IMG/VR virus record: IMGVR_UViG_3300030330_001767
Source: an uncultured virus (IMG/VR IMGVR_UViG_3300030330_001767)
Lineage: Duplodnaviria; Heunggongvirae; Uroviricota; Caudoviricetes
Direction: 5' to 3' (one strand)
Length of the DNA: 64,000 nucleotides
Below are positions 5,997-27,563 of this stretch, one piece after another. The notes under the pieces are model-generated. The model did no database searches. It saw only the letters and a program-made list of their open reading frames with translations, and was not told where the DNA came from. A program made the position numbers and the translations under genes. Within the stretch, counting starts at the first letter, position 1, and the number at the start of each line of letters is the position of its first letter.

Positions 5997-6725
5997 GTGA
6001 AAAAGATGAAAAAAATTTTTGCTAGTCCCAAAAAAATTCCAGCCCATTTTTTGAAAAAAGACGGGGTAGAATCTTTTGACCTATGGTTTGATGCACTTCA
6101 CAAGATGGATGAGTCCGATAGTTGGCTTGACATTCTAAAACTAAGAAGTTCAGATGGTTCTGTTGCAGGTATGCCTAATTTCATTAGATTCTCAAACAGA
6201 ATATTTCAAGATGATAAAGAAGGCACATCTTCAGATAGCGGTGCTATGTTTCAAACCAACAATGGAACAGTTGTTATTGTCCGACCACATTTTGACGCAC
6301 AACAGAAGTTTAGTAGAGTTGGCAATCATAGGGATTACCCGTTGAAAGATGTTATTTTAGGAATAGACAATAATGTTCAAGGTCTTGGTAATTACACTTC
6401 CTTCGTTTCAGCAGGTAAGAAAAACCAAGCAGGTGAAGGAAATGTTGACGCTACCCTGAATTATACAATTCAAGGAATAACAAGACCGATGACAGGTTCT
6501 AACTTGTTGAATAGAACTGTTGCTCAGTTTATGATGGAAGTTTATCCTAAAGAAGATTTGAGTGCTTTTTCGACTGCTAGAAAAGTCATAATATTAAATT
6601 CAGTTCATGGATTCAAAGAATACAAAAAACAAGGTAATGTTAATTTTAGAAACATATGGCCTGAAACTTGGCAAGACAATGAACAACTACAAGATAGGCA
6701 AAGGCGTTTAGGTGGTAAGAAATGA
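5997..6725 (+). CDS. Hypothetical protein with two W-tag motifs (LWFDALHK, SWLDILK); start uncertain
   Basis: 242-aa ORF, coupled to the next gene. Confidence 0.75.
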   Translation: MKKMKKIFASPKKIPAHFLKKDGVESFDLWFDALHKMDESDSWLDILKLRSSDGSVAGMPNFIRFSNRIFQDDKEGTSSDSGAMFQTNNGTVVIVRPHFDAQQKFSRVGNHRDYPLKDVILGIDNNVQGLGNYTSFVSAGKKNQAGEGNVDATLNYTIQGITRPMTGSNLLNRTVAQFMMEVYPKEDLSAFSTARKVIILNSVHGFKEYKKQGNVNFRNIWPETWQDNEQLQDRQRRLGGKK

Positions 6726-6985
6726 GTTGGGAAGATATCATCAAACGGAAAAGGAAGAGATATCCCACAACTGCTCAAAAGAAGAATAAGAATTGGAACA
6801 ACCTCAGTGATGAAGAAAAATTCCAAGTTAGGATGAAAAGGTCTTGGAAAGGTGCGAACAAAAGAAGAGATAATGAAATAAGGGAAGCACAAATTTGCTC
6901 TAAATGTGGTAAAAAAGATAATCCGCCCAAGTCTAGGTTTTGTGTAAAATGTGGCAATAAAATGAAAGTGTGGTGGAAAGAATGA
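6722..6985 (+). CDS. Basic protein with C-terminal zinc ribbon; N-terminal W-tag
   Basis: MSWEDIIK; CSKCG...FCVKCG. Confidence 0.8.
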   Translation: MSWEDIIKRKRKRYPTTAQKKNKNWNNLSDEEKFQVRMKRSWKGANKRRDNEIREAQICSKCGKKDNPPKSRFCVKCGNKMKVWWKE

Positions 6986-7257
6986 AACAGTGGCTAATTA
7001 GAAAATTAATTTCGTTAATGGGTAACACATATGTTTGGTTGGATAAGAAACTAGACCATCCTGATGGGCCAGTTCTCGGTTTAGAGATTGATGATGACTT
7101 TGCACAGATGAGCAGGTATGAGTTATGTTGTCACATTGAAGATAAGTTCGGATTGGAAAGAGATTCTTTTTGGAAGTTGGAGTCAACTCAGAAGATAAGG
7201 TACTGTTGCCAAACTGCAAGGAACATACTTACGCCAAAGAAGAGGAAGAAGAAATGA
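6982..7257 (+). CDS. Hypothetical protein
   Basis: ATGA-coupled at both ends. Confidence 0.7.
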   Translation: MKQWLIRKLISLMGNTYVWLDKKLDHPDGPVLGLEIDDDFAQMSRYELCCHIEDKFGLERDSFWKLESTQKIRYCCQTARNILTPKKRKKK

Positions 7258-7511
7258 GTAACTTAAGCAAGTTTGATAGTCTTCATCATAGTGCGACTAT
7301 GCAGGGTTCACTAAGCACCGATGATGATTCTTGGTTTAACATACTAAGAATGGGAGGAGCAGTAACGTCAACCTCAAGCGGGACATCAGCATTATTCAAC
7401 AATAAAACGGGAGGGGGAAAAAGACGTGGTAAAAGGAAAAAGAGTCTCAAAAGACAAAGGTATCAAGACGAAATTACCAGACGGGACAGACGCTACAATC
7501 AACGTAAGTAA
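7254..7511 (+). CDS. Basic hypothetical protein with W-tag (SWFNILR)
   Basis: ATG 7254 coupled to the upstream stop. Confidence 0.65.
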   Translation: MSNLSKFDSLHHSATMQGSLSTDDDSWFNILRMGGAVTSTSSGTSALFNNKTGGGKRRGKRKKSLKRQRYQDEITRRDRRYNQRK

Positions 7512-8538
7512 GAGGTCTTTCGGACAGGCTTTCCAAGAGTGGGAAAGAAAAGCCGATGGACTTGCAGGTGATTCAATCGGGATGATTAGTCCCGAAGCCA
7601 GTGACATGAGTTTACTCGATGTAGTGAAGAATCAAGGAGTAACTGGAAGAATCAAAGGAAAGACTGGAAGTAAGATAAAGGGCAAAGGTGGAGTTGCTAT
7701 CTTCAAGGCGTTGAAGACTATCTTCTCTAAACCTGATATGTCGAAAGCACAGTTACCTGCTTTGAAAGCATTAGACAAACTAATGGATGGAATTGAGGGA
7801 AGTGCTGCTGACCCTCGTAACGTTGTATTCTCTAATCCAGTGGACTGGTCAGAAGACACTGGAAGAGTATTAGATACTGAACCTGTTTATGGTCATTATA
7901 GAACAGATGAGTATGAAACTGTTAGAGATTTGAAAGACGAGGATGTTCCCGCAGTTTCATCTGAATGGTATAATGATTCTAAGAATGCGGCGACACCACC
8001 ATTTTGGCAAGCACTTTATGGCAAAGGAACTAATGCTCCTTTCAATTCTCCAAGCCTACATATGATAATTAAACAGGCTATCAAAGATATTGAAGATGCC
8101 CCAATAATTATCAACAAGGATAACCCTGTTCCTATTGAGGGTAAGAAGGCTGCAACTACTGCCCTCACAATTTCTGTATTGAGAGCCATAGTAGAAACAG
8201 AGTTGAATAACGGAACAGAGGGTAAGTCATTTCCTGATAGTAAAGTTAGAAGATTGATTGTAGGACAGGCTCAAAACATAAAGAATGAGAAAGAGTCAGA
8301 TGCGGTTGAGAGCCTTAAGAGAATAAACGTTCCAAATGACATTGAGGAATGTTGGTTCAAGTTATCAAGAAGACAAGTTAAGTTGATGGCTTTTGAACTT
8401 GCTAAGAGAAAGGGCATCAAGATGCACTTCAAACAAGCAAGTGGAGATGTCGCGAGAAGCCCATTGGTTTTCGGAGAAAGACCTGACCCTGATACAGAAA
8501 AGAAATCTCTTGATTGGAAAGAGATGTTAGCGAGGTGA
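7426..8538 (+). CDS. Hypothetical protein, C-terminal DWKEMLAR
   Basis: 370-aa ORF, GTG start after GGAGGGGG. Confidence 0.85.
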   Translation: MVKGKRVSKDKGIKTKLPDGTDATINVSKRSFGQAFQEWERKADGLAGDSIGMISPEASDMSLLDVVKNQGVTGRIKGKTGSKIKGKGGVAIFKALKTIFSKPDMSKAQLPALKALDKLMDGIEGSAADPRNVVFSNPVDWSEDTGRVLDTEPVYGHYRTDEYETVRDLKDEDVPAVSSEWYNDSKNAATPPFWQALYGKGTNAPFNSPSLHMIIKQAIKDIEDAPIIINKDNPVPIEGKKAATTALTISVLRAIVETELNNGTEGKSFPDSKVRRLIVGQAQNIKNEKESDAVESLKRINVPNDIEECWFKLSRRQVKLMAFELAKRKGIKMHFKQASGDVARSPLVFGERPDPDTEKKSLDWKEMLAR

Positions 8539-8541
8539 TTA

Positions 8542-8628
8542 GTGTTGAAGTGTTGTAAAATGGAAATTTCATTTGATAATTGTTCTAATACAATGTGTCC
8601 CTATTGCGCGAATTACATAGAGAGGTGA
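8542..8628 (+). CDS. 28-aa Cys-rich microprotein (MLKCCK...CPYC)
   Basis: Hand-translated; GAGGTGA RBS. Confidence 0.45.
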   Translation: MLKCCKMEISFDNCSNTMCPYCANYIER

Positions 8629-8632: not shown

Positions 8633-8743
8633 TTGTTTTTGGGAGTCTGTTGTTTTTGTTTAGCGGTAACTCCCTTTGAGTCATCAATTTCTTCCGGTGA
8701 TTTTTGTGTTAGATGTGGAACATACGAGGGGGCGTTATCTTGA
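8633..8743 (+). CDS. 36-aa Zn-ribbon microprotein (CCFC...CVRC)
   Basis: Hand-translated. GAGGTGA RBS, TTG start, TTGA coupling to the next gene. Confidence 0.5.
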   Translation: MFLGVCCFCLAVTPFESSISSGDFCVRCGTYEGALS

Positions 8744-9399
8744 CTGTAACAAGAAAGAGATGTCGTCTTTGTATGCACGAAGACAGAGAAATCTTTGAGA
8801 GGGATTTGGAGAGTATGCACATTCACCCTGATGACTTGGATAGTAGGATGAACTGGCCTAGTGGGACATCTGCCAAACATCAGAGAAATCATATGGGCGG
8901 TTATGCTGATGCCTCTAATCCCAAGTGTGCATTATGTGTTTATGAGAATCGTTCAGAAATTGAACAGGAATTGTATTCGGGAGATATGACTCCTGAACTT
9001 GCCGCTAAGATAGTTGGTTGTTCAAAGGAGCAAGTAGTTAGACACATCAAGAAACATACACAACCATTGGTGCAAAAAGCGGCGGCACAAATATTGGCGA
9101 CAAAAGAAGTCAATGAGATAGACACACTCAGCAACAACATCGCTAGGTTGGATGGTAAGTTAGAGGCACTGTTTGAGATAGAAGACTTAGACCACAAAAC
9201 AATTGATTCAGTGACAAAGTTAGCAAAGGAAGTGAGAGAGTCGCTAAAGTATCTAATGGAGTTCAAGGGTAAACTCGTTCACAGAAGACAAGACACAATC
9301 ATCGTTCATCAGATGCAGATTATCAAAGAAGTGTTAGCACAGAATCATCCCGAAGTTTGGTTAGATGTTAGAAAGCAAATGGAGGATAAGTTACAATGA
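8740..9399 (+). CDS. Tandem Zn-finger/HTH plus coiled-coil protein; candidate terminase small subunit
   Basis: Two repeats of CxxC...HxxxH (CRLC..HQRNH, CALC..HIKKH) followed by a helical region; lies upstream of TerL. TerS role is inference. Confidence 0.5.
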   Translation: MTVTRKRCRLCMHEDREIFERDLESMHIHPDDLDSRMNWPSGTSAKHQRNHMGGYADASNPKCALCVYENRSEIEQELYSGDMTPELAAKIVGCSKEQVVRHIKKHTQPLVQKAAAQILATKEVNEIDTLSNNIARLDGKLEALFEIEDLDHKTIDSVTKLAKEVRESLKYLMEFKGKLVHRRQDTIIVHQMQIIKEVLAQNHPEVWLDVRKQMEDKLQ

Positions 9400-11216
9400 G
9401 TTACGGATACGGTTGGGCTTGGGAAGAACTTCTATTGAAGAAGCAGACTCTACGAGATAAGGTAGTTCAAGCATCCAAGAGTGGTAACTTCGATGAACTT
9501 CTTGAGAACCATAACTCTGCACAATTGCGTAGAGCGGTAAACACATTAGTAGACGACGGTATGAAGGAAGAAAAGTTTCAGCCTTTGTTGGATAAACTTG
9601 GAACTGCTAAGAGGGTTGATGGTAAAGACAATCCTGAATATGAAAGACCAAATGAAAAGGAAATAGAAATGTATGAATCTTTCATGGAAGGTAATCACGA
9701 AGAATTAGTTAAATTCCTAACAGAAGGTGGAAGAAACGCAGTAGGAAATAGAATTTCACGCTTGATAAAATGGAACTCTGAAAACGGAGATGTACTTCTG
9801 AAATACGTCAAGGATAAACCCGAACTCTATGGCTACATCACTAAGGATATAACACTCACACTACCAAATAACTTTGATAGAGATATCTTGGATGATTACC
9901 AATTTGTAATGGAGAGAGATATCAAGGTAACTTTACCTGAGTTCCTAACAATAGAACAAGGAAAGGCACTTGCAGGTGGTCAGCCATCACAACCAATTGA
10001 GAGAACTGCTTTTGCTAGAATCTTCAAAGCCCCTGAATACAAGGATAAGATTGTAGCAACTTCTATCAAATTAGAGGAAAGCACAATTGATGGTGGATTT
10101 GCAGCAGATTATCTGAACATGGTCGTAACTAATCTACGTGGTAATACAAGAGAACCATTCATGCCTACATTCTCAGTATCAGAAGCCCCTTCTTCGGGGC
10201 AAATCAGAGAAGCACAAAAGTTGTTCTTTGGTGCTAAGACTGGTGGAGGCACAAGTAGGATGTATCCCGCAATGGAGTATATTCTAAGAAATGAGAAGTT
10301 GGACTTGAATGTTGGTTTTGTTAGAACTCAAACTAAGGAAACGCTACAAGAAGTGGAGTTGGCTAATAAGTTTCAAAGGGCAGAGATAGACGATGACGAA
10401 TTGAATAAGTTATACAATAAGTTCGTCAAGACCAAGACTGATGAGGATGGTAATGTAACAAGTGTTACAGGTTATTCTAAGTTTAAACAGGCGGTTATTG
10501 ATGCAGGGCTTGAAGATGACTATAACAAGTTCTTGAAAGAAACCCAAGTCAGACGCTATACTCTACCTGTTGAGGTGAGAGATGCTTTAGTTGCTATGAT
10601 TGATAATGAAGCAGATGAAAAACAAGTTAGATTGGTGAAGTCCAAATTAGGACATTTATTCTCAAAGGTTGGTTTCAAGCGTTCAGTCAGAGAGATGCGT
10701 AAGAAGAAGGTAAACTATGGCGACCCTGATAAAATAAAAGAGGCTCTACTTTCTATGGAAGAAAAGGCAGAAGGAACTGTTTCTATAACAGATAAACTAT
10801 TCCTTGAGAGAGTTAACTTCCTATTCGATGATGTAGACCAAGACCCATTGGGTAATTTCCTTTCGGGAATGGATAGTGGTGGTAAGTTTAGATTAAAGGA
10901 TATGCAACTTTCTTCTAAGCAGGTTCTACAATTTTCAGATTTATTGGTTATGGTTCTACAATTATCGAGAAAGATGTTGAGGGATTCTAAGTTACAAATG
11001 TCCTTGAAGAGATTACTTAGGGAAACAGATGCTAAGAAAAGGAAAGAAGCAGAAGACGAGTTCAAGACAAAACTATCAGAATCATATTCTAAAATACATA
11101 AGGGTGTATTAGACGCAATAAGAAGAAAGATGGTGCAAGTGATGGAAGAACCACTACTACACAATAAGTCAGGAGCAATTCAACCATACGATTGGATTAA
11201 CGAGAACAGGAGTTGA
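9396..11216 (+). CDS. Large helical hypothetical protein (possible virion internal protein)
   Basis: 606-aa ORF; N-terminal AWEELLLK. Confidence 0.85.
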   Translation: MSYGYGWAWEELLLKKQTLRDKVVQASKSGNFDELLENHNSAQLRRAVNTLVDDGMKEEKFQPLLDKLGTAKRVDGKDNPEYERPNEKEIEMYESFMEGNHEELVKFLTEGGRNAVGNRISRLIKWNSENGDVLLKYVKDKPELYGYITKDITLTLPNNFDRDILDDYQFVMERDIKVTLPEFLTIEQGKALAGGQPSQPIERTAFARIFKAPEYKDKIVATSIKLEESTIDGGFAADYLNMVVTNLRGNTREPFMPTFSVSEAPSSGQIREAQKLFFGAKTGGGTSRMYPAMEYILRNEKLDLNVGFVRTQTKETLQEVELANKFQRAEIDDDELNKLYNKFVKTKTDEDGNVTSVTGYSKFKQAVIDAGLEDDYNKFLKETQVRRYTLPVEVRDALVAMIDNEADEKQVRLVKSKLGHLFSKVGFKRSVREMRKKKVNYGDPDKIKEALLSMEEKAEGTVSITDKLFLERVNFLFDDVDQDPLGNFLSGMDSGGKFRLKDMQLSSKQVLQFSDLLVMVLQLSRKMLRDSKLQMSLKRLLRETDAKKRKEAEDEFKTKLSESYSKIHKGVLDAIRRKMVQVMEEPLLHNKSGAIQPYDWINENRS

Positions 11217-13930: not shown

Positions 13931-14431
13931 ATGTTAGAGTTTCAAGAGATGTCTGAGGATGATGCCGTTAGAGTATTCTTAGATGACGGGTATTATGAAT
14001 ACAAAAAAAGAAGAGAACGTTATCAAAGGATATCTCCTAATTCATCTTGGGCTACTGCACCTGCAAGAATGTTTGTTGGTTTTTTAGAAGATAAACCAGT
14101 AGGAGTCATTGGTTTTGCTCCATACAAAGGAGTTCTTTTGGGAGCAGGTATTCATGTTAGAAGAGGATTCAGAGGTAGAGGATTAGCGCAGTTATTAGTT
14201 CAAAAATTAGTAGAGGAAAAAGGAGGACAAACTCTTTTTGCTAATATTGCTAATCCAAGAATTGCTAACACGTACAGAAGATATGGGTTCAAAGATATGA
14301 ATGAAGAAGAGTTACCCGATGACTCAAGAAATGCTATTCGGGGATTAGAGTTCGCAGACCAAGTTCAGAAATGGGTTTGGGGAGTTCATCGAGATGTTTG
14401 GTTTGACGTGGTGAAAAATGGAATTAGATGA
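13931..14431 (+). CDS. GNAT-family acetyltransferase
   Basis: Acetyl-CoA motif A IHVRRGFRGRGLAQLL; N..I...Y.RYGF motif B. Confidence 0.85.
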   Translation: MLEFQEMSEDDAVRVFLDDGYYEYKKRRERYQRISPNSSWATAPARMFVGFLEDKPVGVIGFAPYKGVLLGAGIHVRRGFRGRGLAQLLVQKLVEEKGGQTLFANIANPRIANTYRRYGFKDMNEEELPDDSRNAIRGLEFADQVQKWVWGVHRDVWFDVVKNGIR

Positions 14432-15851
14432 TTTAGATTTTGTTTCAGCAATGGATATGGAACTATCTAAAACTTCATTTCCATATTTTTTTCAAAATGT
14501 TCTTGGAATGATGTTTCCTCCGTATATGCAAGAATGGTTAGAGTCAATGGAGAAAACAGATAGAACCGTTATTGTTTGTAGTCGCGACCACGGAAAATCT
14601 GTTTTTATGCACAGTTGGGTAGTGTGGAATCTTGTGTTTCAAGAACCACCATATCAAATGCTTTACATTTCTTCTAACCAAAAGCAGACTCTTGTTCACA
14701 TGAGAGAAATTGACAGATACTTCAACCACCCTGCTCTTAAAAAATACAAGCCCAGTAGGGGTTGGGCTATTGGTAACATTCAGTTAACAAACGGTAACGC
14801 TATCTTGGAGCGTTCCGTTGGTTCTCAAATCAGAGGACTTCACCCACAGGAGATTATTATTGACGACCCTTTGAAGGAGTTTAGCCTTGCAGGTATTCAA
14901 CGAGTTACAGATTGGTTCTTTGGGGATATGATACCAACACTTCATCATACATCTAAGTTGAGAATGATTGGAACTCCGTTTACCTACACAGATATTTTTG
15001 CTCAGTTAGAGGAGAATGAAGCATATTCTGTTCAGAAGTATCCATGTCTAAACTCTTTGAATGAACCACTTTGGCCTGAACGTTGGGGTTATGACGCATT
15101 GATGAAAAGAAAAGCAGAGATAGGTTCTCTCAAGTTTACAAGAGAATATCTCTGTGTCCCTATTTCTACTGGAACTGCTTTATTTAATCCTGAGTTCATA
15201 GAGAAGTGCAAGAACAAAGATTACGTTTTGAAACTTGGACATCGTAAAGAAAAGGGATACAAGTATTATGTTGGAGTTGACCCTGCTATCTCAACTGATG
15301 GTGACTATAATGTAATTACAGTTTTAGAGGTTGATGAAAATAAAAACAAAACCATAGTTCATGTAGATAGGGCTAAGAATGTAGATTTTAGAGAGAACAT
15401 AGAGAAGATTAGATTGATTGGTAAAATCTTTGAACCCGAAGAAGTTCTCTATGAAACCAACACTTTCGCAAAAGCATTTACACAAGAACTACGAAACATA
15501 TCTGACTTGAATGTTAGAGATTTTACAACTACAAGAAAAAAGAAACAGGAAATAATTCTGAGTCTTCAAATGAATATAGAAAACGGGAAAATAAATTTTC
15601 CATATGGTGATAATGCGAGTAGAAGACTAACCAATGCTTTGATAGAAGAACTGTCTATGTTCTCTATTACTGCTGCCGGAAAATTTGAGGGTGTAGGAGC
15701 GCATGACGACTTAGTTATGAGTTTAGCATTAGCAGTGGCTTGTGCTACAAAGACATCAGATGTGTTCATGTTGTTGGATGATATGGGAATATTTGATGAA
15801 CCTAAGCCAATGAACAGGTCTTTAGGCGGAATGATGGGGCTGAACTTCTAG
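14418..15851 (+). CDS. terL: Terminase large subunit
   Basis: Walker A SRDHGKS, Walker B IIIDD, coupling motif GTP, RNase H nuclease YVGVDPA...HDDLVMSLALA. Confidence 0.95.
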   Translation: MELDDLDFVSAMDMELSKTSFPYFFQNVLGMMFPPYMQEWLESMEKTDRTVIVCSRDHGKSVFMHSWVVWNLVFQEPPYQMLYISSNQKQTLVHMREIDRYFNHPALKKYKPSRGWAIGNIQLTNGNAILERSVGSQIRGLHPQEIIIDDPLKEFSLAGIQRVTDWFFGDMIPTLHHTSKLRMIGTPFTYTDIFAQLEENEAYSVQKYPCLNSLNEPLWPERWGYDALMKRKAEIGSLKFTREYLCVPISTGTALFNPEFIEKCKNKDYVLKLGHRKEKGYKYYVGVDPAISTDGDYNVITVLEVDENKNKTIVHVDRAKNVDFRENIEKIRLIGKIFEPEEVLYETNTFAKAFTQELRNISDLNVRDFTTTRKKKQEIILSLQMNIENGKINFPYGDNASRRLTNALIEELSMFSITAAGKFEGVGAHDDLVMSLALAVACATKTSDVFMLLDDMGIFDEPKPMNRSLGGMMGLNF

Positions 15852-18277: not shown

Positions 18278-18282
18278 TTATC

Positions 18283-18705
18283 ATGCCAATTCGTAAAGTC
18301 AAAGGAGGATACAAGTGGGGCAAAAGTGGCAAGGTCTATCGTAGCCGTAAGGATGCTGAACGACAAGCAGCCGCCGCTTATGCTTCCGGCTACAAGAAGT
18401 CAGAAGATTGGTTTGACACTTTAAAGAGAGAAAAGCACCCTGCATTAAAGAGAGCAGGTGTTAGTGGTTTTAGTAAACCAAAGAGAACTCCTAAGCATCC
18501 TAAGAAATCACATGTAGTAGTTGTAAGAGATGGTAAGAAAGTCAAGACTATTCGATTCGGAGAACAAGGTGCTGATACAGTAACCGAAAAAAATCCGAAA
18601 GGAAAGAGGAAAAAGAAACAAGCATCATTCAAGGCTCGCCATGCTAAGAATATTAAGCGGGGGAAAATGTCTGCGGCGTATTGGGCTAACAAAGTAAAGT
18701 GGTAA
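18283..18705 (+). CDS. Lys/Arg-rich protein, two modules joined at a W-tag
   Basis: MPIRKVKGGYKWG...EDWFDTLKR...KTIRFG...SAAYWANKVKW. Confidence 0.8.
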   Translation: MPIRKVKGGYKWGKSGKVYRSRKDAERQAAAAYASGYKKSEDWFDTLKREKHPALKRAGVSGFSKPKRTPKHPKKSHVVVVRDGKKVKTIRFGEQGADTVTEKNPKGKRKKKQASFKARHAKNIKRGKMSAAYWANKVKW

Positions 18706-18707
18706 GC

Positions 18708-20366
18708 ATGGTAGAAGAAAAAAGAAGATTTAGTTTAACTAGTTTGTTTAGGCAAACTACGCCCAAACCCGCAGATAGAACAGTATACAATCCGGGTATA
18801 CAAGAAAGAGATAATTCATATCTTTTGACTAGTCCAATTATCTATCACATAGTATCTCAATCTACTATTGTTAGAACTTGCATTACTCAATTGAAACAAG
18901 AAATATTCAGAAGAGGTTATCACTGGCAATCTAAGTTTGCTCTAAAATGCAAAAATTGTGCTAAGGAACATGAAAGCACCGTAAAAGAGTGTGTTGATTG
19001 TGGAAGCACTGATTTGATTAAACCTGATATTGAACAACTAAAATACGCTAAAAAATTCTTAGATGGATATGTAAATTGCTCAGAGCAATTATTCATTGAT
19101 GTCCTAAAGGAACTTGAAGATGACTTGAATATTATGGATGACGCATATTTGGTAATGGTGAAAGAATACTATGCTGATAACAATTCCAAAGTTAGGATGC
19201 ACAGAATCAAGGAAGTATACAGAGGCGACCCAGTTACTATGCACATCTATGCGAATGATTTGGGAGAGAGAGGAAAAGCCGGATATACTTGTCTAAGACA
19301 TAGAAAAAGAATAAGTCAGAGTTCAACAGAACTTTGTGAGGTTTGTAATTCAGAACTCTATCCTGTTCATTATGTTAACAGAGTAAACGGTGAAGAACAA
19401 TACTTCGTGAAGGGAGAAGTTCTACATTTCAGTAAATACTCACCAAGTAGATTGTATGGTCTTTCACCAATAATCACTCTATGGAACAATGTTACAACAC
19501 TAATTGCTATGGAGAATTATGTCAACTCATCATACACTAAAGCAAGAATGCCGAAGGGACTTCTTGCAGTCCAAACAAGAAACATGGACTCAATGAAATC
19601 ATTTTGGCGTGGTGTTAAGGAAAAGATGGAGCAAGACCCACACTTCATACCTGTAATGGGAATAGAGGGAGAAGGTGGTAAAGGTTCTGTTGAATGGGTC
19701 AAGTTTATGGACAGTCTAAAGGAAATGGACTACATACAAGTTAAGGATGATTTGAGAGATAGAATTTCAGCATTCTATGGTGTAAGTAAAATCTTCATGG
19801 CAGACAACTCTGCTAGTGGCGGTTTGAACAATGAGGGTATGCAAGTATTAGTTACTAATAGGGCAGTAGAAATGGCTCAAACAATTTGGAATAATTATGT
19901 GTTCCCATTTATGTCAGAGGAGTTTGGAATAACTGATTGGTGTTTGAAACTACCACCATCCGAAGAAGAGGATGAGATTGCAGTTCTACGTAAAAGAGAG
20001 ATAGAAGTGAATGTCGCTGCTGCGATTAAGAACTTAGGATTTGAAGTAGATATGGATGATGAAGGTGGGTTCATCTACACAAAACCTGAACCTAAAGAAT
20101 CAACAGAAGGAGAAGGTGAAGAAGATAGCGAAGAAATTGAATTAGACCCATATGCCGGAACTGATATTGATGCCTCTCAAATGGGACAAATGCAAGAACA
20201 AATGATGATGGGAGGAAATAAGTCTGAGAGCAAACCTCAAGAAAACCCCCCCGCTACGAGAAACAAACCATCTATGGCTACTGGCCCAGATAAAAGATTT
20301 ACAGGATTACCAAGAGAAGCCGGAAATGAGAATGTTGACGAAAGAACAGAGAGGAGAGTAGGATGA
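18708..20366 (+). CDS. Portal protein with Zn-ribbon insertions
   Basis: Size and position. EVLHFSKYSPSRLYGLSP, D+DYIQ..DDLRDRISAFYGVS (HK97-like portal pattern). CKNC/CVDC and CLRH/CEVC. Confidence 0.85.
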   Translation: MVEEKRRFSLTSLFRQTTPKPADRTVYNPGIQERDNSYLLTSPIIYHIVSQSTIVRTCITQLKQEIFRRGYHWQSKFALKCKNCAKEHESTVKECVDCGSTDLIKPDIEQLKYAKKFLDGYVNCSEQLFIDVLKELEDDLNIMDDAYLVMVKEYYADNNSKVRMHRIKEVYRGDPVTMHIYANDLGERGKAGYTCLRHRKRISQSSTELCEVCNSELYPVHYVNRVNGEEQYFVKGEVLHFSKYSPSRLYGLSPIITLWNNVTTLIAMENYVNSSYTKARMPKGLLAVQTRNMDSMKSFWRGVKEKMEQDPHFIPVMGIEGEGGKGSVEWVKFMDSLKEMDYIQVKDDLRDRISAFYGVSKIFMADNSASGGLNNEGMQVLVTNRAVEMAQTIWNNYVFPFMSEEFGITDWCLKLPPSEEEDEIAVLRKREIEVNVAAAIKNLGFEVDMDDEGGFIYTKPEPKESTEGEGEEDSEEIELDPYAGTDIDASQMGQMQEQMMMGGNKSESKPQENPPATRNKPSMATGPDKRFTGLPREAGNENVDERTERRVG

Positions 20367-20479
20367 GTTGGTTTGACGTAATAAAAAAATTAAAAGGAAA
20401 GCAAAAGGAACTAGATGTTGATGACGATGGAGACATTGATGGAGATGACTTCAAAGAATTAAGGGAGGGTAAAGAATGA
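20363..20479 (+). CDS. 38-aa EF-hand-loop microprotein with W-tag
   Basis: Hand-translated MSWFDVIKKLKGKQKELDVDDDGDIDGDDFKELREGKE; ATGA-coupled on both sides. Confidence 0.8.
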   Translation: MSWFDVIKKLKGKQKELDVDDDGDIDGDDFKELREGKE

Positions 20480-20769
20480 GTTGGCAAGATATACTAAAAA
20501 ATGAACTAAATGTAAAAACATTGGAAGAGATAGCGAGTGAATTGGATAAAGCAGTAGAAACACACGCTTCCCAAGCGAAGAGAATTAGAGAGTTAATTGC
20601 ACAACACAATAAGGGCGCACCTACAAGAATGCAAGCACCACAATACATAACCAATAGGCCAAGAGTCCCAACAATTCCACAACCAAGAGATTACACTGCG
20701 GGAGATAGAGCATTGATGAGGAGAGCAAAAAACAATCTCGATGAAGAAAAAAGGAGGAAAAATCAATGA
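20476..20769 (+). CDS. Hypothetical protein with W-tag
   Basis: MSWQDILK. Confidence 0.8.
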   Translation: MSWQDILKNELNVKTLEEIASELDKAVETHASQAKRIRELIAQHNKGAPTRMQAPQYITNRPRVPTIPQPRDYTAGDRALMRRAKNNLDEEKRRKNQ

Positions 20770-20990: not shown

Positions 20991-20999
20991 GTTGATTAC

Positions 21000-22808
21000 A
21001 TGACATGGACTAGCATTCTCAAGAGAAGCGAAATCCATGCTGATGTTATGTGGGCTTACAATCAAGCACAAAAAAAAGACTCGACAAAGTTTCCTATTGC
21101 AGATTTGCGTGAGGCGCATCGTGCATTAGATGATGCCGCAGAAAAAGATGCAGAAGAAAGGGATAAGTCAGAGGCTAAGGTTACAAATATTCTGAGTAGG
21201 GGTTTCTTTTCTAACTCAAGAGATAGATTAACTCCTGTTGAGTTTGAGAAGGACAAGAGAAAGTTCATCAACAGAATAAACAGTTTGGAAAGATTGCTAA
21301 ACAAAAGAAGTAAAGAATCCATGAAACTCCCCGAAGGGCAGACATTGAACATAAGAGATTTAGATGCTCTAAGAGAAGAAAACTCTCTGTTGGAATTATT
21401 ATTTGAGGGAGAGAAAAAAGTTCTAGTTAAACTAAAAACGGCTTTAGGTGAAAGAAAAGATGCTGCGATTGACTTCGCAGAAAAACTCTATGATGCAATG
21501 GAATCATGGGACAGATATGGAGATAACACTCGCAGTAGAAATCTTGTTGACGACTTAAGACCACGCCTTGCATCGGGAGCAAAGAACTTACAAGCATATT
21601 TGTTAGAAGGGAAGGGTAGAATTAGAACTGAGGTTTCTTCCTTATTCCATGAAAAAGATGCCAAGTTTGATGAAGAAAGTAAAACTTGGAGTCCTCTTAA
21701 GGTATACCCAAAGGGAAACACTTCCTTAGAACTACTTGAGAAAATATACTCCTATCTTAGAATACCAATAAAAATATCAGGAGAAGATGAAGCCGGAGAA
21801 AAGGCAATACGAAGTTATTTCTCATTAGATGTAGATGAGTTTGTAGATGAGATTCACGATATGATAGGTAGTGATGACCCAAAGATTCATGCTAAACTAT
21901 TTTTCAATAAGGATGATGTTTTGAGGAAGATATACAGAATAGTTCCTGAAATTATACAGATTGCAGAAGAAAAAATGGATGACAAAGAAAAGGGAGAGTT
22001 GTTGACTAAACACTTTGACGTGTTAGAATATTTGATTAGGATTAATTCTTTGACTGGTGATTACAGTAGACTAAAAGAAAACAGGTTGGACAAAGTAAAA
22101 CGATTTGCTCATATGCGGAAGGGCAAAAGAAATCTCAGCATGAATAGAAACTTCCCAATGCTAGAAGATGCCTATGAAGAATATGAGGCGAACCCAAGTG
22201 AGTATCATACAAGTGGTAGAAAGAAACAACGTACACCTCCTAAACTTCAAAGTAAAAGATTGGTTTTGAGAAACCCATCTCTACCATCACGGTATCAAGG
22301 GCCACGAACTAAAGAAGAAGTAGAGAGAGATGTCAGTAACTTTACCACATTTTCAAGAAAAATACAGGAGATAAAACCTAAACTAACTTCAGGTGAATTA
22401 GAACGTAAGACTTTAGTTGGTATGAAAAGAACATTAGATTCATTCAAGGAAAAGATGGAGAAGCACGATTTGCTTTTAGAAGATACACTTGATGTTATGG
22501 GTATAGAGGGCATTGAGAATGAAGATGACTTGGATGAAGCCATAAACAAATACAAGGAAATGCTACAACGAATAAAATCGGAAAGAACAGATGATGGTAA
22601 AATCATCGGTGAAGATGGAGAAGAATATGACGCTGATGAATTAATTGAATCCTATGAAGATTATTTGGAATACCTAAATGTTCTAAGTGCAATACCACGT
22701 TTGAGAGAAGTAATCCCTCGATTAGAAACTATTTTACAAAACGTAAAACTTGAGGAACAATCATTAGATGAACCTTCATCTGATGATGCGGAGGAGGAGT
22801 CTGCATGA
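21000..22808 (+). CDS. Large charged helical hypothetical protein with W-tag
   Basis: 602 aa; MTWTSILKR. Confidence 0.85.
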   Translation: MTWTSILKRSEIHADVMWAYNQAQKKDSTKFPIADLREAHRALDDAAEKDAEERDKSEAKVTNILSRGFFSNSRDRLTPVEFEKDKRKFINRINSLERLLNKRSKESMKLPEGQTLNIRDLDALREENSLLELLFEGEKKVLVKLKTALGERKDAAIDFAEKLYDAMESWDRYGDNTRSRNLVDDLRPRLASGAKNLQAYLLEGKGRIRTEVSSLFHEKDAKFDEESKTWSPLKVYPKGNTSLELLEKIYSYLRIPIKISGEDEAGEKAIRSYFSLDVDEFVDEIHDMIGSDDPKIHAKLFFNKDDVLRKIYRIVPEIIQIAEEKMDDKEKGELLTKHFDVLEYLIRINSLTGDYSRLKENRLDKVKRFAHMRKGKRNLSMNRNFPMLEDAYEEYEANPSEYHTSGRKKQRTPPKLQSKRLVLRNPSLPSRYQGPRTKEEVERDVSNFTTFSRKIQEIKPKLTSGELERKTLVGMKRTLDSFKEKMEKHDLLLEDTLDVMGIEGIENEDDLDEAINKYKEMLQRIKSERTDDGKIIGEDGEEYDADELIESYEDYLEYLNVLSAIPRLREVIPRLETILQNVKLEEQSLDEPSSDDAEEESA

Positions 22809-23149
22809 GTTGGCAAGATGTGCTAAAAGATGAAGGATTCTACTTCTCTCCCATCTTCATTGAGAAACTTGATGGTAAGCAGAAAAAGAAGTTGAAGAAA
22901 CTTATACAGAAGGCTCAACCAACAAACATGATGGGTCAGGATATGACTCAACTTTCAGATATAATCGAAGAACTGAAAGACATGGATTTAGTAAAGTCTG
23001 ATAAAAAACTAAGTAAAACCGTAGAAGGTTTTGATGAAAAGAACTTGGAGATTCTCGCCTCTGCCTCTGAGTTGAGAAAGGACTACGAAACACTATTCAC
23101 ACAACTAAGAAAAATGGTTTATCCACCATCAAAGAAAGGTAAGCAGTGA
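22805..23149 (+). CDS. Hypothetical protein with W-tag
   Basis: MSWQDVLK. Confidence 0.8.
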   Translation: MSWQDVLKDEGFYFSPIFIEKLDGKQKKKLKKLIQKAQPTNMMGQDMTQLSDIIEELKDMDLVKSDKKLSKTVEGFDEKNLEILASASELRKDYETLFTQLRKMVYPPSKKGKQ

Positions 23150-23153
23150 TACA

Positions 23154-23234
23154 ATGAATTGGAAAAATGAACTAAGAGTGCGGATTAAAGAAAGTTTATC
23201 TAAAATGTATGAGGAGGAAGCAAGCAATGAGTGA
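23154..23234 (+). CDS. Possible 26-aa microprotein MNWKNELRVRIKESLSKMYEEEASNE
   Basis: Hand-translated; fills the gap between genes; tag-like N-terminus. Confidence 0.45.
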   Translation: MNWKNELRVRIKESLSKMYEEEASNE

Positions 23235-23448
23235 CGAGATGTTGATGTTGATGAAAGAATTGGTAGACAAAGTGAAAGCCTTAGAGCAAGCAGTCTACAA
23301 CAAAGATAACCTGTTAATGAAATCAGGATTTGTCGTTTACGAATCACCTACACCTACAATGGACAGTAAGGATGTTGCAGGTAGTAGTACGATAAAGAAG
23401 AGTATGGATTGGGAAGACATACACGAATTAGTCAAACAAATGGAGTGA
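23227..23448 (+). CDS. Small coiled-coil protein ending in MDWEDIHELVK
   Basis: GAGGAGG RBS; C-terminus matches the scaffold C-terminus MSWEDIHAL. Confidence 0.8.
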   Translation: MSDEMLMLMKELVDKVKALEQAVYNKDNLLMKSGFVVYESPTPTMDSKDVAGSSTIKKSMDWEDIHELVKQME

Positions 23449-23453
23449 ATAAT

Positions 23454-23672: not shown

Positions 23673-23699
23673 ATCCCTACGAAAGACGTGAGGGGTCAG

Positions 23700-26291
23700 A
23701 TGCCGCAAACAGGATTAGAGTTTGAAAAAGAAACAAGTGGCCTAACAAAACAGGTCTTAGATTTTTTTGAGAAGGTTCGCTACTCCTATCTTTCAGCAAG
23801 AGAAAATCCCGATGATTATGGGGATGCTTGGAAGAAAACAGTCAAGGATATCAGAGAACAATTAGATTCTCTTGATGATTTCAGCAATGAATTGAAAACT
23901 TATGTCAAAGAAGACGTGGCTCAATCTGATGAGGCATACAACCCAAAATCAAGACAAGCAAAAGAATTGTATGAATCGGTAAAGGAACTCAGGTTCAAAT
24001 CCGAAAAGGTCAGTGACCCGTTTTCAAAACAACTTGGTGATAATGTAATACCTAAGTTGTTGAAGAATGAAGCATTGTTTGCTTATTTTATTCACTATGC
24101 TTTACGCTCTCATGCAAATGCTTTACCTGAAAAGGCATGGAAAGCGGTAGAACTCAAACCCGATAAGATAACTCAAAATGTAATGGGTTTGGATTTAGAG
24201 CCAAAGGACATTCCATTATACATCATAGAACATTATGGTGGAGAAGAGGAAGACACAAGAAGAGTGGAAAGTAAGTTCAAGGGGGCTTACAAATTATTAG
24301 AGAAGGTGTATGCTTCTCAATATGATGAAGATAAGTGGGATAATCTCGTTGAGTTAGATATTGCAAAGAGTGAACAAAAACAAGAAATTGACTTTATCGT
24401 TCCCAACAAACCAATGTATAGAATTTTTGAAATAGATGATATGAAAGAAATCAAAGGTCTTACTGGTGAATATATTGTTCAAGAAAAATATGATGGTATG
24501 AGAATACAACTTCACAAGTTCAATGGTAAAGTCAGAATATACTCTTTCAATGAAAAGGACATTACAGATAAGTGTCCAAAACAAGTTAAACAACTGGAAA
24601 AGAAAATGTTCAATGATTGTATATTGGATGGGGAACTCATGTTGTTCGATGGTGATGAACCATTACATAGAGCAGATACAATAGCCCATGTTTTCAAGAA
24701 TAAAAAGGGTGGTGAACTAAGGGCACACGTCTTTGATATTATGGTTCATGAAGGAAAGAACATTTCTGATGAAACTCTACGAGAAAGAAATAATATTCTT
24801 TTGTATCAGTATGCTCAACATTCGTCTGAGGACTTAGCGTTCCCATCTAAGAAGGATACAAGAATCGCTGATTCCATAAAAGAAGTAGAATCCTATGCTA
24901 AAGAAATAATGCAGTTACCTGCATCAGAAGGTGTGGTAATCAAAGATATAGAATCAACATATTACATTGGAGTTAAGAAAAATCCTAAGTGGATTAAGTG
25001 GAAGAAGTTCATTGATTTGGATGTTGTAGTTTTAGATGATAAGAAAACAAAGAGCAATCTACATTCCTACACAATGGGAGTTGGGCCAGTTAATGCTGAA
25101 ACTGCGAGGAACTACAAGACTGTTGAGTTTGAAGATAAAGACTACTTAGAAGTGGGTAAGGCTCTCAACACAAAACAATCAGTAAAAATTGGTAGTATTG
25201 TTAGAGTAAAAGTTGATGAAGTTAAGAAAGGTAAAGATGGGTTCAAACTATTTTCTGCTAAAGTTATAGAGATACCCGAAGTAACCCAATCAGATACGGT
25301 TGAAACATTAGAGCAACTAGCAAGTAAAACAAAGAAATCTCTTACTGCAATTGGATATACATTTGGAGATAAGGTAGGTGGGATGTTTGAAGTCACATCA
25401 GGATTAGAGAACCCAAGAGGTCAGAAAAGGAAAGATGTCAAGAAAGGATATTACATTACAGACCACATACATGGAACTGCTGAGATTATTCTAAAAGAGG
25501 ATATGAATGGTTTCACAATCTATGGTTTTGAAGGAGATTCTCTTATGCAGAAGAATGCTCTATACAACATAGACTTGTGGAAAGAGCAAGTAATTAGTAT
25601 AATGAAAGGGAAACGTTCTACTTTTAGATTGGCTATTCGTAATGAAATATTAGAGAGTGGTAGAGATAATCTAAGGTTTGAACAGATATTAGATTATGTT
25701 AAGGACAAACATCAAGGAACTTTTCAAGACTTATTCGATTCTGATGAAGGAAGGTTAATGTCTTGGATGAAACAACAAGAAGATTTAGTTTACCTTCATC
25801 CTAACAAGTTTACTGCAAGAGAAGATATACTGGAAAAAGATGTTGAAGAATTACAAAAGGAAGAAACAGGTAAGTATACAATTAATCTTAGAGAAGATGA
25901 TAATGTAGATTTAATCATAGAATACAAAGACGAGCGTATGGGTTGGACTATTGATATTGAAGAGTCAGAAGACATATACGAATTGTTTGGTAAGTCAGGT
26001 AAGTATCCGGCTATTGTAATGAAGAATGCAGGTGAGCCTAAGAAAGTATTGGATAAAGGCAGTATAGAATTAGGTATTCAAAAAGATGGATACCATGAAT
26101 ATAGATTAGATGGAGATAAGTTCCAAACAAGAATGCACTTTAGAGTAGTTCCGTTAGATGAACAAAAGAGTTGGATAGCATGGACAGGAAAAAAACAAGA
26201 AATGTTAGACGATGAAGAGAACCCAAATAAATGGAATCTGAATGAAGATTCTTATGCTCAATTACCCTTCCCTTCGGATAAAAAAGAGTAA
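23700..26291 (+). CDS. lig: ATP-dependent DNA ligase with N- and C-terminal extensions
   Basis: Motif I QEKYDGMR, III ILDGEL, IIIa HVFDIM, IV EGVVIK, V WIKWKK, then an OB-fold region. Confidence 0.9.
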   Translation: MPQTGLEFEKETSGLTKQVLDFFEKVRYSYLSARENPDDYGDAWKKTVKDIREQLDSLDDFSNELKTYVKEDVAQSDEAYNPKSRQAKELYESVKELRFKSEKVSDPFSKQLGDNVIPKLLKNEALFAYFIHYALRSHANALPEKAWKAVELKPDKITQNVMGLDLEPKDIPLYIIEHYGGEEEDTRRVESKFKGAYKLLEKVYASQYDEDKWDNLVELDIAKSEQKQEIDFIVPNKPMYRIFEIDDMKEIKGLTGEYIVQEKYDGMRIQLHKFNGKVRIYSFNEKDITDKCPKQVKQLEKKMFNDCILDGELMLFDGDEPLHRADTIAHVFKNKKGGELRAHVFDIMVHEGKNISDETLRERNNILLYQYAQHSSEDLAFPSKKDTRIADSIKEVESYAKEIMQLPASEGVVIKDIESTYYIGVKKNPKWIKWKKFIDLDVVVLDDKKTKSNLHSYTMGVGPVNAETARNYKTVEFEDKDYLEVGKALNTKQSVKIGSIVRVKVDEVKKGKDGFKLFSAKVIEIPEVTQSDTVETLEQLASKTKKSLTAIGYTFGDKVGGMFEVTSGLENPRGQKRKDVKKGYYITDHIHGTAEIILKEDMNGFTIYGFEGDSLMQKNALYNIDLWKEQVISIMKGKRSTFRLAIRNEILESGRDNLRFEQILDYVKDKHQGTFQDLFDSDEGRLMSWMKQQEDLVYLHPNKFTAREDILEKDVEELQKEETGKYTINLREDDNVDLIIEYKDERMGWTIDIEESEDIYELFGKSGKYPAIVMKNAGEPKKVLDKGSIELGIQKDGYHEYRLDGDKFQTRMHFRVVPLDEQKSWIAWTGKKQEMLDDEENPNKWNLNEDSYAQLPFPSDKKE

Positions 26292-26336
26292 TTATTGCTA
26301 TTACTTCATATAGTAAGAGTGTAAAACCTACCGATA

Positions 26337-27563
26337 ATGCTCATGATGGATACTCCTCTCTTAAAGGCTGAGAGTAATCATGAGTTTACTATTTTGAAGT
26401 CTGACAACTTAATCATTGGAGGTTATGCTTCAATCGAAATAGTAGACAAGCAGAACGATTTAATTACAATTGAAGCATTACAAGATGCGGTAAAGAAATA
26501 CATGGCTGATGAGAAATACAGAAATGTAATGTCTAATCATTCTAATGTGCAAGTTGGTGAAGTTGTAGAAAAATATAGAGATGCTAACGGAGTTTTGCAC
26601 AAGACTGCGGTAGATGACGTAGGATTCTATGTTGTAATAAAACTACGAGATGACATTGAGAAAGCAAAAGAAATCTCAAGAGGAATTAGAAAAGGAACTC
26701 TACGTTCCTTTAGTATTGGAGGACAAGCCATTTCAAAGAAGCAAAGAACTTCTGATGAGTATGGTGAGTACAATGAGATAGACAGGTTGGAACTGCACGA
26801 AGTTACAATCTGCGAGAAGGGGATAAATCCCGAAGCAAAATTCGACATTTTGAAAATGGAGGAAAAAAACATGAGTGAAAAGTTAGAAAAAGCACTTGAA
26901 GAACTGAACGACCTGATGAAACAGGTTAGTGACGTTACTTCGATAGAAAAAGAGGAAGAAACGATGAACGAGAAGATGATGGACGAAAAAATGGAAACAT
27001 CTGATGAAGACGAGAAAATGATGTCTGAAAAGATGATGGAAAGGATGGATGACGAAGAGATGAAGGCAGAAGACGACGATGAGGAGACAAAGGCTCTTGA
27101 TGAAGATTCAACAAGAGACTATGAAGCCGGAGAGTTGGTTGTAGATAATGGCAACCCCACTGCTGCGCCTACTGAACTAAAGTCATTTGGTCTTGATGGA
27201 ACAGACTTTGCTACTCTCGACCTATCAGTTGAGAACGTAGAGAAAGCATATGCAAAGTACAAGGCAGAGAAAATGGAAGCAATGGCTTACGATTCTCTAT
27301 CAAAGCAATTTGAAGCCCGTCTTGCAGAAGAGTTGTCTGTTAAGAAAGCAGAGGCTGAAAAAGCATCTTATGATGCTCGCTCAGATGTAGCGGCTCTGAA
27401 AGAAGAGTTTGCTGAACTACGCAAGTCCCTATCCGAGAAGGATTCAGAAATCAGAAAGGCACAGGAAGTAGCATTTGCTCTACCCGATGGAATGCCAACA
27501 AGCATTGAGGCGGCGGCTGAGATGTCTTGGGAAGATATACACGCACTAACAAGAGGTGATTAA
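26337..27563 (+). CDS. Prohead maturation protease fused to acidic coiled-coil scaffold
   Basis: IIGGYAS...VDKQND, HSN..VG, RSFSIGG, LHEVTIC..GINPEA (HK97-type protease); E/M/K-rich tail. Confidence 0.9.
   Translation: MLMMDTPLLKAESNHEFTILKSDNLIIGGYASIEIVDKQNDLITIEALQDAVKKYMADEKYRNVMSNHSNVQVGEVVEKYRDANGVLHKTAVDDVGFYVVIKLRDDIEKAKEISRGIRKGTLRSFSIGGQAISKKQRTSDEYGEYNEIDRLELHEVTICEKGINPEAKFDILKMEEKNMSEKLEKALEELNDLMKQVSDVTSIEKEEETMNEKMMDEKMETSDEDEKMMSEKMMERMDDEEMKAEDDDEETKALDEDSTRDYEAGELVVDNGNPTAAPTELKSFGLDGTDFATLDLSVENVEKAYAKYKAEKMEAMAYDSLSKQFEARLAEELSVKKAEAEKASYDARSDVAALKEEFAELRKSLSEKDSEIRKAQEVAFALPDGMPTSIEAAAEMSWEDIHALTRGD

Follow-up and report, generated by a model that had tools for sequence, protein, structure and literature searches.

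Within the 64,000-nucleotide DNA of an uncultured tailed virus (IMG/VR record IMGVR_UViG_3300030330_001767; this whole stretch is called the window below), a short peptide recurs on otherwise unrelated proteins encoded in the head gene block, positions 5,997 to 27,563. The consensus of this tag is [M]-[ST]-W-x-[DE]-[IV]-[LI]-K. We consider it probable, at roughly 60%, that the tag serves as a portable head-loading label, a short linear binding motif that mimics the conserved C-terminal tail of the prohead scaffold. An earlier note on this DNA had described the motif on about 16 unrelated head-module proteins, and every instance that it listed was found at or near its place. By our count, tags are borne by 16 of the 24 called genes in the block, including the variants AWEELLLK and DWKEMLAR (the latter directly before a stop codon) and two scaffold-type tails. 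Nine of these tags are N-terminal, three internal and four C-terminal. One listed copy, MNWKNELR at 23154, already regarded as weak, was dropped as a tag because the open reading frame (ORF) that it heads spans only 26 codons.

We counted the strict motif W-x-x-[ILVT]-[LIV]-[KR] in 50 called genes (18,751 amino acids), with 2,000 within-protein shuffles as a control; the gene list and the starts at 7254, 17189 and 18002 are our own calls. The motif matches 13 times, versus a shuffle mean of 1.04 (maximum 6), and it falls within the first eight residues of eight proteins, versus 0.03 in the shuffles (maximum 2). The enrichment over shuffled sequence that had been anticipated is thus borne out, and a chance origin is excluded. 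All 13 matches lie in the 27 genes 5' of the capsid gene (7,376 amino acids). The 23 genes from the capsid gene onward (11,375 amino acids) hold no strict match, in agreement with the earlier remark that tail genes lack the tag. A six-frame scan of the window for the strict motif gives 19 matches on the + strand and 2 on the − strand. Each N-terminal copy has a GGAGG/GGTGG-like site 6–12 nucleotides 5' of it, and two tagged genes have unusual starts, ATA at 17189 and GTG at 18002. The tagged genes that precede the protease-scaffold gene, together with one further candidate, are as follows.

5997..6725, + strand: 242-residue protein with tandem tags LWFDALHK (residue 30) and SWLDILK (residue 43); no Pfam or PHROG family above cut-off.
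6722..6985, + strand: 87-residue, very basic Zn-ribbon-like protein that starts MSWEDIIK; weak Zn-ribbon Pfam matches below cut-off.
7254..7511, + strand: 85-residue basic protein with SWFNILR at residues 26–32.
7426..8538, + strand: 370-residue protein with the C-terminal tag DWKEMLAR.
8713..9399, + strand: 228-residue protein that ends VWLDVRKQMEDKLQ, with a weak PHROG transposase match; this ending is possibly a scaffold-type tail, which would make it a 17th tagged protein, outside the earlier list.
9396..11216, + strand: 606-residue protein with the variant tag MSYGYGWAWEELLLK, which has one extra Leu.
13931..14431, + strand: GNAT acetyltransferase (Pfam PF00583, E=3e-9) with the C-terminal tag VWFDVVKNGIR.
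17189..17785, + strand: soluble PAP2-family phosphatase (Pfam PF01569, E=3e-12) that starts (ATA)TWFSILK, with GAGGGGGTG upstream.
17782..18012, + strand: 76-residue, very basic protein (26 Lys or Arg) that starts MTWFEVLK; a PHROG 17747 match begins at residue 15, past the tag.
18002..18277, + strand: 91-residue, very basic protein that starts (GTG)TNNWFVTLK; a PHROG 14910 match begins at residue 11.
18274..18705, + strand: 143-residue basic two-module protein with DWFDTLK at the junction (residues 45–51), between PHROG 31267 (residues 4–46) and PHROG 7595 (residues 53–143).
20363..20479, + strand: 38-residue acidic protein that starts MSWFDVIK, in a 28-member cluster of relatives.
20476..20769, + strand: 97-residue protein that starts MSWQDILK, in a 9-member cluster.
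21000..22808, + strand: 602-residue, all-alpha protein that starts MTWTSILK and has a conserved acidic C-terminal tail.
22805..23149, + strand: 114-residue helical protein that starts MSWQDVLK, the sole near-core tagged family.
23209..23448, + strand: 79-residue coiled-coil-like protein that ends MDWEDIHELVKQME, a scaffold-type tail.

The same peptide recurs in relatives of this virus. Our sample comprised 80 IMG/VR loci totalling 1.07 Mb, with at most 10 kb taken on each side of the capsid gene, to which the window was added. In the 80 loci the motif occurs 398 times on the coding strand versus 56 times on the other strand, and the form that begins M-x-W occurs 145 times versus once. With the window included there are 177 N-terminal tags, of which 173 precede the capsid gene and 4 follow it, in 502 kb and 516 kb of searched DNA, respectively. 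All four downstream cases are false, three being one capsid-internal site and the other a tiny ORF. When the tag is removed, clustering of the 177 proteins yields 57 groups by BLAST (E<1e-4) and 56 by phmmer (E<=0.01), numbers that are an upper bound on the families present because short, fast-evolving proteins may escape cluster linking. Nonetheless, the carriers include the unrelated domains PAP2, GNAT, Zn-ribbon, DUF1540 and DUF5754, and the idea of a portable peptide on unrelated proteins holds across the window and its 80 relatives. Among the 28 loci that have the full 10 kb upstream, a locus carries between 0 and 9 tags, with a mean of 4.4. The cluster of the 114-residue protein (22805) is nearly universal, being present in 26 of these 28 loci, and 33 of the 49 clusters found there are confined to a single locus.

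Five relatives with longer records (93–102 kb, 94–100% complete by CheckV) were searched with a degenerate DNA pattern for the tag and with the reversed pattern as a control. The tag pattern gives 41 matches, versus 0 for the reversed pattern. Of the 41, 38 are co-oriented with the capsid gene and lie 5–28 kb 5' of it, three of these on the presumption that the ends of record G004 are joined; the remaining three lie elsewhere. Equal frequency of the motif in non-head reading frames, which the earlier note had named as an outcome that would speak against its proposal, is therefore not what these genomes present.

Residue counts in 134 unique tags with Trp at residue 3 define the consensus. Position 1 is M in 130, position 2 is S in 85, T in 15 and N in 10, position 3 is W in all 134, and position 4 is Q, F, E or K. 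Position 5 is D in 66 and E in 26, position 6 is I in 93, V in 20 and T in 16, position 7 is L in 83, I in 31 and V in 19, and position 8 is K in 127 and R in 7; from position 9 onward there is no preference. Within the family of the 114-residue protein, M1, W3 and K8 are invariant in 26 sequences and positions 2, 4 and 5 are variable.

The tag is also retained at places other than the N terminus. Orthologues of the 370-residue protein keep their C-terminal tag in 5 of 5 complete relatives, at 27–65% identity of the body; they end SWADILKVT, SWEEILKC, DWREIVKAV, SWNEILKVN and NWQDMLVRL. The GNAT protein has one homologue among the five relatives (in G006), which ends SNWFYIMRK. The second module of the 18274 protein is standalone, with a tag near its start, in three relatives, and is fused in two relatives and in the window. 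Comparison of these sequences indicates that the tag functions at N-terminal, internal and C-terminal sites, and such position independence favors a binding epitope over an effect of the start codon or of the N terminus.

It is much harder to credit, and in our estimation very improbable, that the peptide is functionless, either as an inherited ancestral 5' cassette spread by duplication and recombination or as a DNA or RNA context for translation start. The codon usage of the tag does carry a signature of descent. Ser-2 has the codon AGT in 83 of 85 unique tags, versus 27% of Ser codons in the window's genes, and untagged genes that begin Met-Ser mostly use TCN (TCA for the capsid gene, TCC at 30447 and TCT at 31131). 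The codons ATA (69 of 93 Ile, background 44%) and CTA (36 of 83 Leu, background 18%) are over-used at tag positions 6 and 7, and similar ribosome-binding sites lie 5' of all tags. The other position-2 codons (Thr ACT, Asn AAT and Gly GGT) are one step from AGT. From this bias and these one-step codons, the tag-coding 5' ends look homologous, spread by duplication or recombination. However, the peptide is kept internally and at C termini, where there is no start context, which contradicts a cassette or start-context origin of the conservation. The tag is also borne by unrelated Pfam domains. Its Trp, hydrophobic pair and Lys persist even where similarity between the bodies can no longer be detected, and many synonymous codons occur at positions 6–8. 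The earlier statement that codons differ between copies is accordingly right for positions 6–8 and fails for Ser-2. Selection at the level of the peptide retains the Trp, the hydrophobic pair and the Lys, and shared descent leaves the functional reading unweakened.

The resemblance to the scaffold involves the gene directly 5' of the capsid gene, a fusion of an S78 prohead protease with an acidic scaffold region. This gene and the other head genes that provide its context are listed here.

14418..15851, + strand: large terminase (PHROG 38, E=6e-56), untagged.
18699..20366, + strand: portal protein (PHROG 18178, E=4e-63; Pfam PF04860), untagged.
23688..26291, + strand: 867-residue protein with an ATP-dependent DNA ligase domain, between portal and protease, without a tag.
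26337..27563, + strand: S78 prohead protease fused to an acidic scaffold region (Pfam PF04586, E=2e-9, residues 26–179), which ends MSWEDIHALTRGD.
27566..28960, + strand: major capsid protein (PHROG 24667, Pfam PF17236), the candidate receptor.

The block is co-oriented and runs from terminase through portal, ligase-domain protein and protease-scaffold to the capsid gene, followed by tail tube and tape measure; the capsid start lies 3 nucleotides past the protease-scaffold stop. The untagged genes of the block include the terminase, the portal, an HNH-like protein, the ligase-domain protein and a 901-residue protein.

In all 80 of the 80 readable loci (there are 81 sequences, one of which is interrupted by a contig end), the final 16 residues of the protease-scaffold contain W-x-[DE]-[ILV], in the wider pattern [MLVI]-x-W-x-[DE]-[ILV]-[HNA]-x-x-... 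The likeness of the tag to the scaffold C terminus that had been noticed in the window therefore extends to the whole sample, in which the M-S-W-x-[DE]-I core of the tail is conserved. Homologues of the 79-residue coiled-coil protein end M-x-W-x-x-I-[HNRS]... in 49 of 49 loci. Tag and scaffold tail share a core in which an aromatic residue is followed by an acidic one at +2 and a hydrophobic one at +3, and the hexapeptide MSWEDI is identical between the start of the 6722 protein and the window's own scaffold tail.

More distant capsid lineages were compared for the same two features. In a lineage at ~38% capsid identity to the window (6 loci), the scaffold tail reads KMSF[ED]ELN.[LVM]EVA and there are no multi-family tags; locus L085 has the scaffold tail MTWREVEDYVAKMRGE and no multi-family tags in 8 kb. 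In a lineage at ~37% identity (43 loci), the scaffold ends in the unrelated tail GEFGNGLPGGY, and 229 kb upstream of the capsid genes contain 0 N-terminal W tags. Loci L082, L084 and L086 likewise have unrelated scaffold tails and no multi-family tags. The P0009 and P0007 capsid lineages were left out as they offer no usable loci. No tag families were thus seen in lineages with unrelated tails (GEFGNGLPGGY or ..RAARLRESA), and related tails (MSF[ED]ELN.. and MTWREVEDYV) occur in lineages without tag families, from which the aromatic scaffold tail appears to be older and more widely distributed than the tags. Tags are seen only where a W-type scaffold tail exists, as mimicry of the tail predicts, among a small number of independent lineages. 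Separately, a distant capsid lineage with a G+C content of ~0.5 has a conserved protein of ~125 residues that starts MI[VT]DAWL.[AL]VR... and forms a single family (L142:2120, L143:1144, L145:5287 and L146:3844).

The head genes also place the virus. The best matches of the portal in a phage collection are the haloarchaeal siphoviruses HCTV-5 and HVTV-1 (28–29% identity) and one Methanomassiliicoccales virus, and ~600 relatives of the capsid protein occur in IMG/VR, the longest of their contigs reaching 101 kb. Magroviruses have genomes of about 65–100 kb and are abundant in marine samples. A DNA ligase gene within the structural module is described as a magrovirus trait in passages of PMC5434244. 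The window combines halovirus-related head genes, such an embedded ligase and many IMG/VR capsid relatives. Because of the halovirus-like portal and the capsid relatives on contigs of this size, we read it as a magrovirus-type archaeal tailed virus, which as a member of that group would be expected to infect Poseidoniales. Halovirus HVTV-1 has no such tags, and a tblastn search against it matched only the portal, protease and capsid genes, plus a marginal match for the window's gene at 29067 (E=0.007).

We suggest the following course of events for head loading. The conserved tail of the protease-scaffold, M-S-W-x-[DE]-I-H-x-L, would anchor the scaffold on the inside of the growing capsid shell, as expected from other tailed viruses, such as P22-type scaffolds and the HK97 protease; since a scaffold must dock to the shell being built, such a tail is an obvious docking element. 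The tag copies the core of the tail (aromatic, acidic at +2, hydrophobic at +3), and a peptide with this core would be expected to arrive at the tail's docking site regardless of the end of the passenger to which it is attached. Tagged proteins, with the tag at either end or internal, would be recruited to the same receptor during prohead assembly and trapped inside. The receptor is most likely the capsid protein, perhaps its conserved N-terminal 28 residues ending L-L-K/A-G, and the closing hydrophobic-hydrophobic-Lys of the tag might also be a site for the S78 head protease. Once packaged, the passengers would accompany the DNA into the next host cell; they comprise small, soluble proteins, many of them extremely basic, together with a few enzymes (PAP2, GNAT) and a pair of ~600-residue proteins. 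In this course of events we infer docking, cleavage, delivery and which protein is the receptor.

The capsid protein has a conserved N terminus that may serve such docking. Its first 28 residues (MSGYIKTMKDLEAATYG...GNALLK/AG) are conserved in all 81 sequences, and their layout, a helix at the N terminus and then h-x-K-[AST]-D, is seen throughout the wider capsid family at identities as low as ~27%. A complex prediction for the capsid protein with residues 1–40 of the 114-residue tagged protein gave an ipSAE of 0.00 in two runs, with 125 rows in the capsid alignment and without folded controls, a value that speaks neither for nor against binding.

Loading could instead follow the route known from phage T4, with the tag binding the scaffold or protease core, or serving as a substrate motif of the S78 protease, and not binding the capsid; the likeness between tag and tail would then reflect self-association of such helices. 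We regard this as unlikely, although it can claim all of the evidence for the proposed label except the receptor. According to passages of PMC9026906, the T4 capsid-targeting sequence acts through affinity for core proteins. The I-L-K end of the tag resembles two elements that are invariant in 56 of 56 unique protease-scaffold sequences, F-x-ILK-[SA]-[DE] at residues 17–23, before the protease domain, and [KR]FDILK at residues 168–173, at the end of the domain. It also echoes the capsid N-terminal A-L-L-K/A-G of the 81 sequences and the family-wide h-x-K-[AST]-D. The S78 protease of HK97 is said to cut after Lys. Within the main reading, too, these likenesses make cleavage of the tag's hydrophobic-hydrophobic-Lys by the S78 protease conceivable, at a chance that we would put somewhat below even. 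On the other hand, a closing Lys at the same spacing is absent from the scaffold tail and from the tail of the 79-residue protein, a cut after Lys would leave C-terminal tags unreleased, and KFDILK lies within the protease fold as defined by Pfam.

A partner outside the head, either a host factor or a viral protein such as a chaperonin, might likewise be bound by the tag, which would then act on cytoplasmic accessory proteins, with the scaffold tail using the same partner for another purpose. Activity at any position suits any linear binding motif, the passengers are fast-evolving orphans like host-takeover proteins, and magroviruses encode thermosomes, as parts of PMC5434244 report. However, the motif keeps to the head gene block: tail genes lack it altogether, and so do nearly all genes on the replication side. 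Tails with the W-x-[DE]-I core, though not the full tag, occur on two conserved proteins, the protease-scaffold and its small coiled-coil neighbor. Scaffolds are known to act inside the prohead, and many passengers are basic enough to be DNA counter-ions. We therefore rank a non-head partner as less likely still than the T4 route.

The passengers themselves are compatible with a life inside the head. None of the 16 tagged proteins, the PAP2 protein (17189) included, has a hydrophobic segment. Several consist of 25–34% Lys and Arg (26 in 76 residues, 28 in 91, 43 in 143 and 27 in 87), as expected of DNA-associated internal proteins. In AlphaFold2 (AF2) models, the tag of the 114-residue protein is a low-confidence helix at residues 3–9, apart from the body, and residues 1–9 of the 602-residue protein score under 50 in predicted local distance difference test (pLDDT), versus a mean of 70.7. 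In both models, the tag is thus predicted to be a flexible short helix separate from the folded body. For the larger proteins, searches gave little to compare: the 602- and 606-residue tagged proteins and the 901-residue untagged protein have no PDB sequence match below E=0.4, the 602- and 606-residue proteins have no Atlas match, and the 606-residue protein matches no Pfam or PHROG family. The AF2 model of the 602-residue protein has no fold match in the PDB (best E=0.07, template modelling (TM) score ~0.1) or in BFVD (best E=0.0015, TM score 0.11). The acidic C-terminal tail of this protein, ..QSLDEPSS[DE][DE]A.EESA, is strictly conserved down to 38% identity and may be a second interaction motif.

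Several points weigh against the label as proposed. The capsid protein as the receptor is a guess. The [KR]FDILK element lies inside the Pfam S78 match (residues 26–179) and may be structural, not a cut site, and a cut after Lys would remove only 1–3 residues of the C-terminal tags, so that the notion of a removable label fails for some copies. In this window, hydrophobic-hydrophobic-Lys is neither enriched nor depleted in tagged proteins relative to shuffles. The tag Trp is lost in distant homologues of the 602-residue protein (MDILTK, MTFMGVLKK). Only 2 of 47 cluster representatives reach the Pfam cut-off, and the passengers are mostly without assigned function; no magrovirus virion proteome was found in the literature. 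The codon signature shows that the tag-coding ends share ancestry, so the pattern is partly inheritance and not independent selection, and the 56–57 clusters are not as many independent inventions. Head genes and tagged genes share one operon-like block, and co-regulation alone could explain the placement, but tail genes of the same orientation lack the tag.

A larger picture also suggests itself, to which we would give slightly worse than even odds: in a virus that ranks with the ocean's most abundant archaeal viruses, about one sixth of the genes might encode proteins that are packed in the capsid and co-injected with the DNA, all by way of one 8-residue tag copied from the docking tail of the scaffold. 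Such cargo would form a quickly renewed arsenal, made up of proteins that coat the DNA, enzymes and factors for taking over the host.

Of known systems, the closest is the T4 capsid-targeting sequence (CTS), and by analogy the tag would be CTS-like in function but not a homologue. Passages of PMC9026906 describe the CTS as an N-terminal peptide of ~10 residues common to divergent basic internal proteins (IPI–III and Alt); for IPIII, the initial 10 residues are enough to bring foreign proteins into the T4 head, and internal-protein passengers vary between related phages. The window matches this in having a shared N-terminal peptide on unrelated proteins (8 versus 0.03 in shuffles), a head-internal location being only presumed. 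In place of the T4 gp21 protease family, only Peptidase_S78 (PF04586, E=2e-9) was found. T4 sites end in Glu and the magrovirus tag in Lys; the T4 CTS is N-terminal and is removed, whereas the magrovirus tag is also internal and C-terminal; and magroviruses have an archaeal host and far more families (56–57 clusters). Because protease family, motif, placement and host domain all differ, the tag is not a member of the T4 system. We know of no report of scaffold-tail mimicry for the T4 CTS.

A different likeness is offered by HK97, whose maturation protease gp4 was reportedly shown by Duda, Oh and Hendrix in 2013 to be carried into the prohead by its own C-terminal region. An S78 protease with a conserved C-terminal tail, encoded just 5' of the capsid gene, is likewise present in magroviruses, with the tail conserved in 80 of 80 readable loci. 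As far as is known, the HK97 tail serves the protease alone, whereas the core of the magrovirus tail is copied onto dozens of other proteins. The scaffolding proteins of P22, 80alpha and phi29 have coat-binding C-terminal helices at the inner face of the shell. The magrovirus equivalent, a conserved C-terminal helix on a protease-fused protein encoded just 5' of the capsid gene, resembles them in a comparison by description only. To our knowledge, these scaffolds do not lend their tails to unrelated passengers.

Encapsulin cargo-loading peptides, to which the tag had been likened in the earlier note, are short terminal peptides that address varied cargo to the inside of an HK97-fold shell. The likeness holds for function only, as an analogy, and goes no further: the motif is another one, magrovirus tags are mostly N-terminal, and terminase, portal, tail tube and tape measure mark a portal-bearing tailed virus, not an encapsulin, which has no portal, terminase or tail. 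The MuF-domain polymorphic toxins of temperate phages are another case of variable passengers, which are directed to the capsid by a common module encoded beside the portal gene. There the address is a whole domain, in contrast to the 8-residue peptide of magroviruses, and no Pfam match to MuF (PF04233) was obtained at E<=0.001 in 48 window proteins. HVTV-1 (L081) encodes, between portal and protease, a "zeta toxin" of 1314 residues (20096–24037) that starts MKQQIFKEMLARR; the likeness of this start to the C-terminal DWKEMLAR of the window's 370-residue protein may be chance.

Literature searches returned nothing on a magrovirus tag. Term searches of the magrovirus papers PMC5434244 and PMC11706807, covering their main text, found no mention of an N-terminal motif; in the searched text of PMC11706807 the word "motif" appears twice, both times for helix-turn-helix motifs. 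The present analysis adds the C-terminal tags conserved among orthologues, a second protein with a scaffold-type tail, the AGT codon bias as a mark of common descent, and the greater age of the tail relative to the tags. Though uncultured, magroviruses are highly abundant, and only a minority of their genes have an assigned function. If the label is real, a virion-interior location and a time of action at the earliest stage of infection would be assigned to dozens of orphan families together, and the T4 capsid-targeting concept would extend to archaeal viruses. The origin of the label by mimicry of a scaffold tail would be demonstrated. On the larger picture of co-injected cargo, the tag would be the smallest and most widely reused natural capsid-loading tag known, and it could readily be used to bring foreign proteins into the shell of an archaeal virus. 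Should the passengers serve to counter host defences or to take over the cell, the speed at which they are replaced would be a sign of an arms race between a major ocean host and its virus.

Some further observations concern individual genes of the window. The apparent ATA start of the PAP2 gene lies within the sequence ATAA, where the gene overlaps the stop codon of the HNH-like gene before it. A start at an Ile codon is also seen in 3 of the 134 tags of relatives, and the ATA could be an unusual start codon or a case of coupled re-initiation. In the 867-residue protein, the ligase domain occupies residues 257–439, with long flanks of no known function; passages of PMC5434244 remark on the odd genome position of the ligase without explaining it. 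The peptide DAWKKTVK at residue 48 of this protein is conserved and fits the regular expression, but it has no acidic position and was not counted as a tag.

Two giant ORFs lie 3' of the tape measure, each with an apparent TTG start and no Pfam family above cut-off, and are presumably tail or fibre proteins.

41929–49155: giant ORF of 2408 residues.
49611–59471: giant ORF of 3286 residues.

At the opposite end of the window, positions 650–5680 hold few long ORFs and a palindromic repeat, ACAAAGT-N(6-9)-ACCATATGGT-N(6-9)-ACTTTGT. The ACCATATGGT core occurs in 7 copies, all in the first 4.8 kb (0.03 expected; 7 copies were reached in 0 of 100 shuffles), and a near-copy lies at 5662. They could serve as operators, promoters or origin repeats at the genome's regulatory end.

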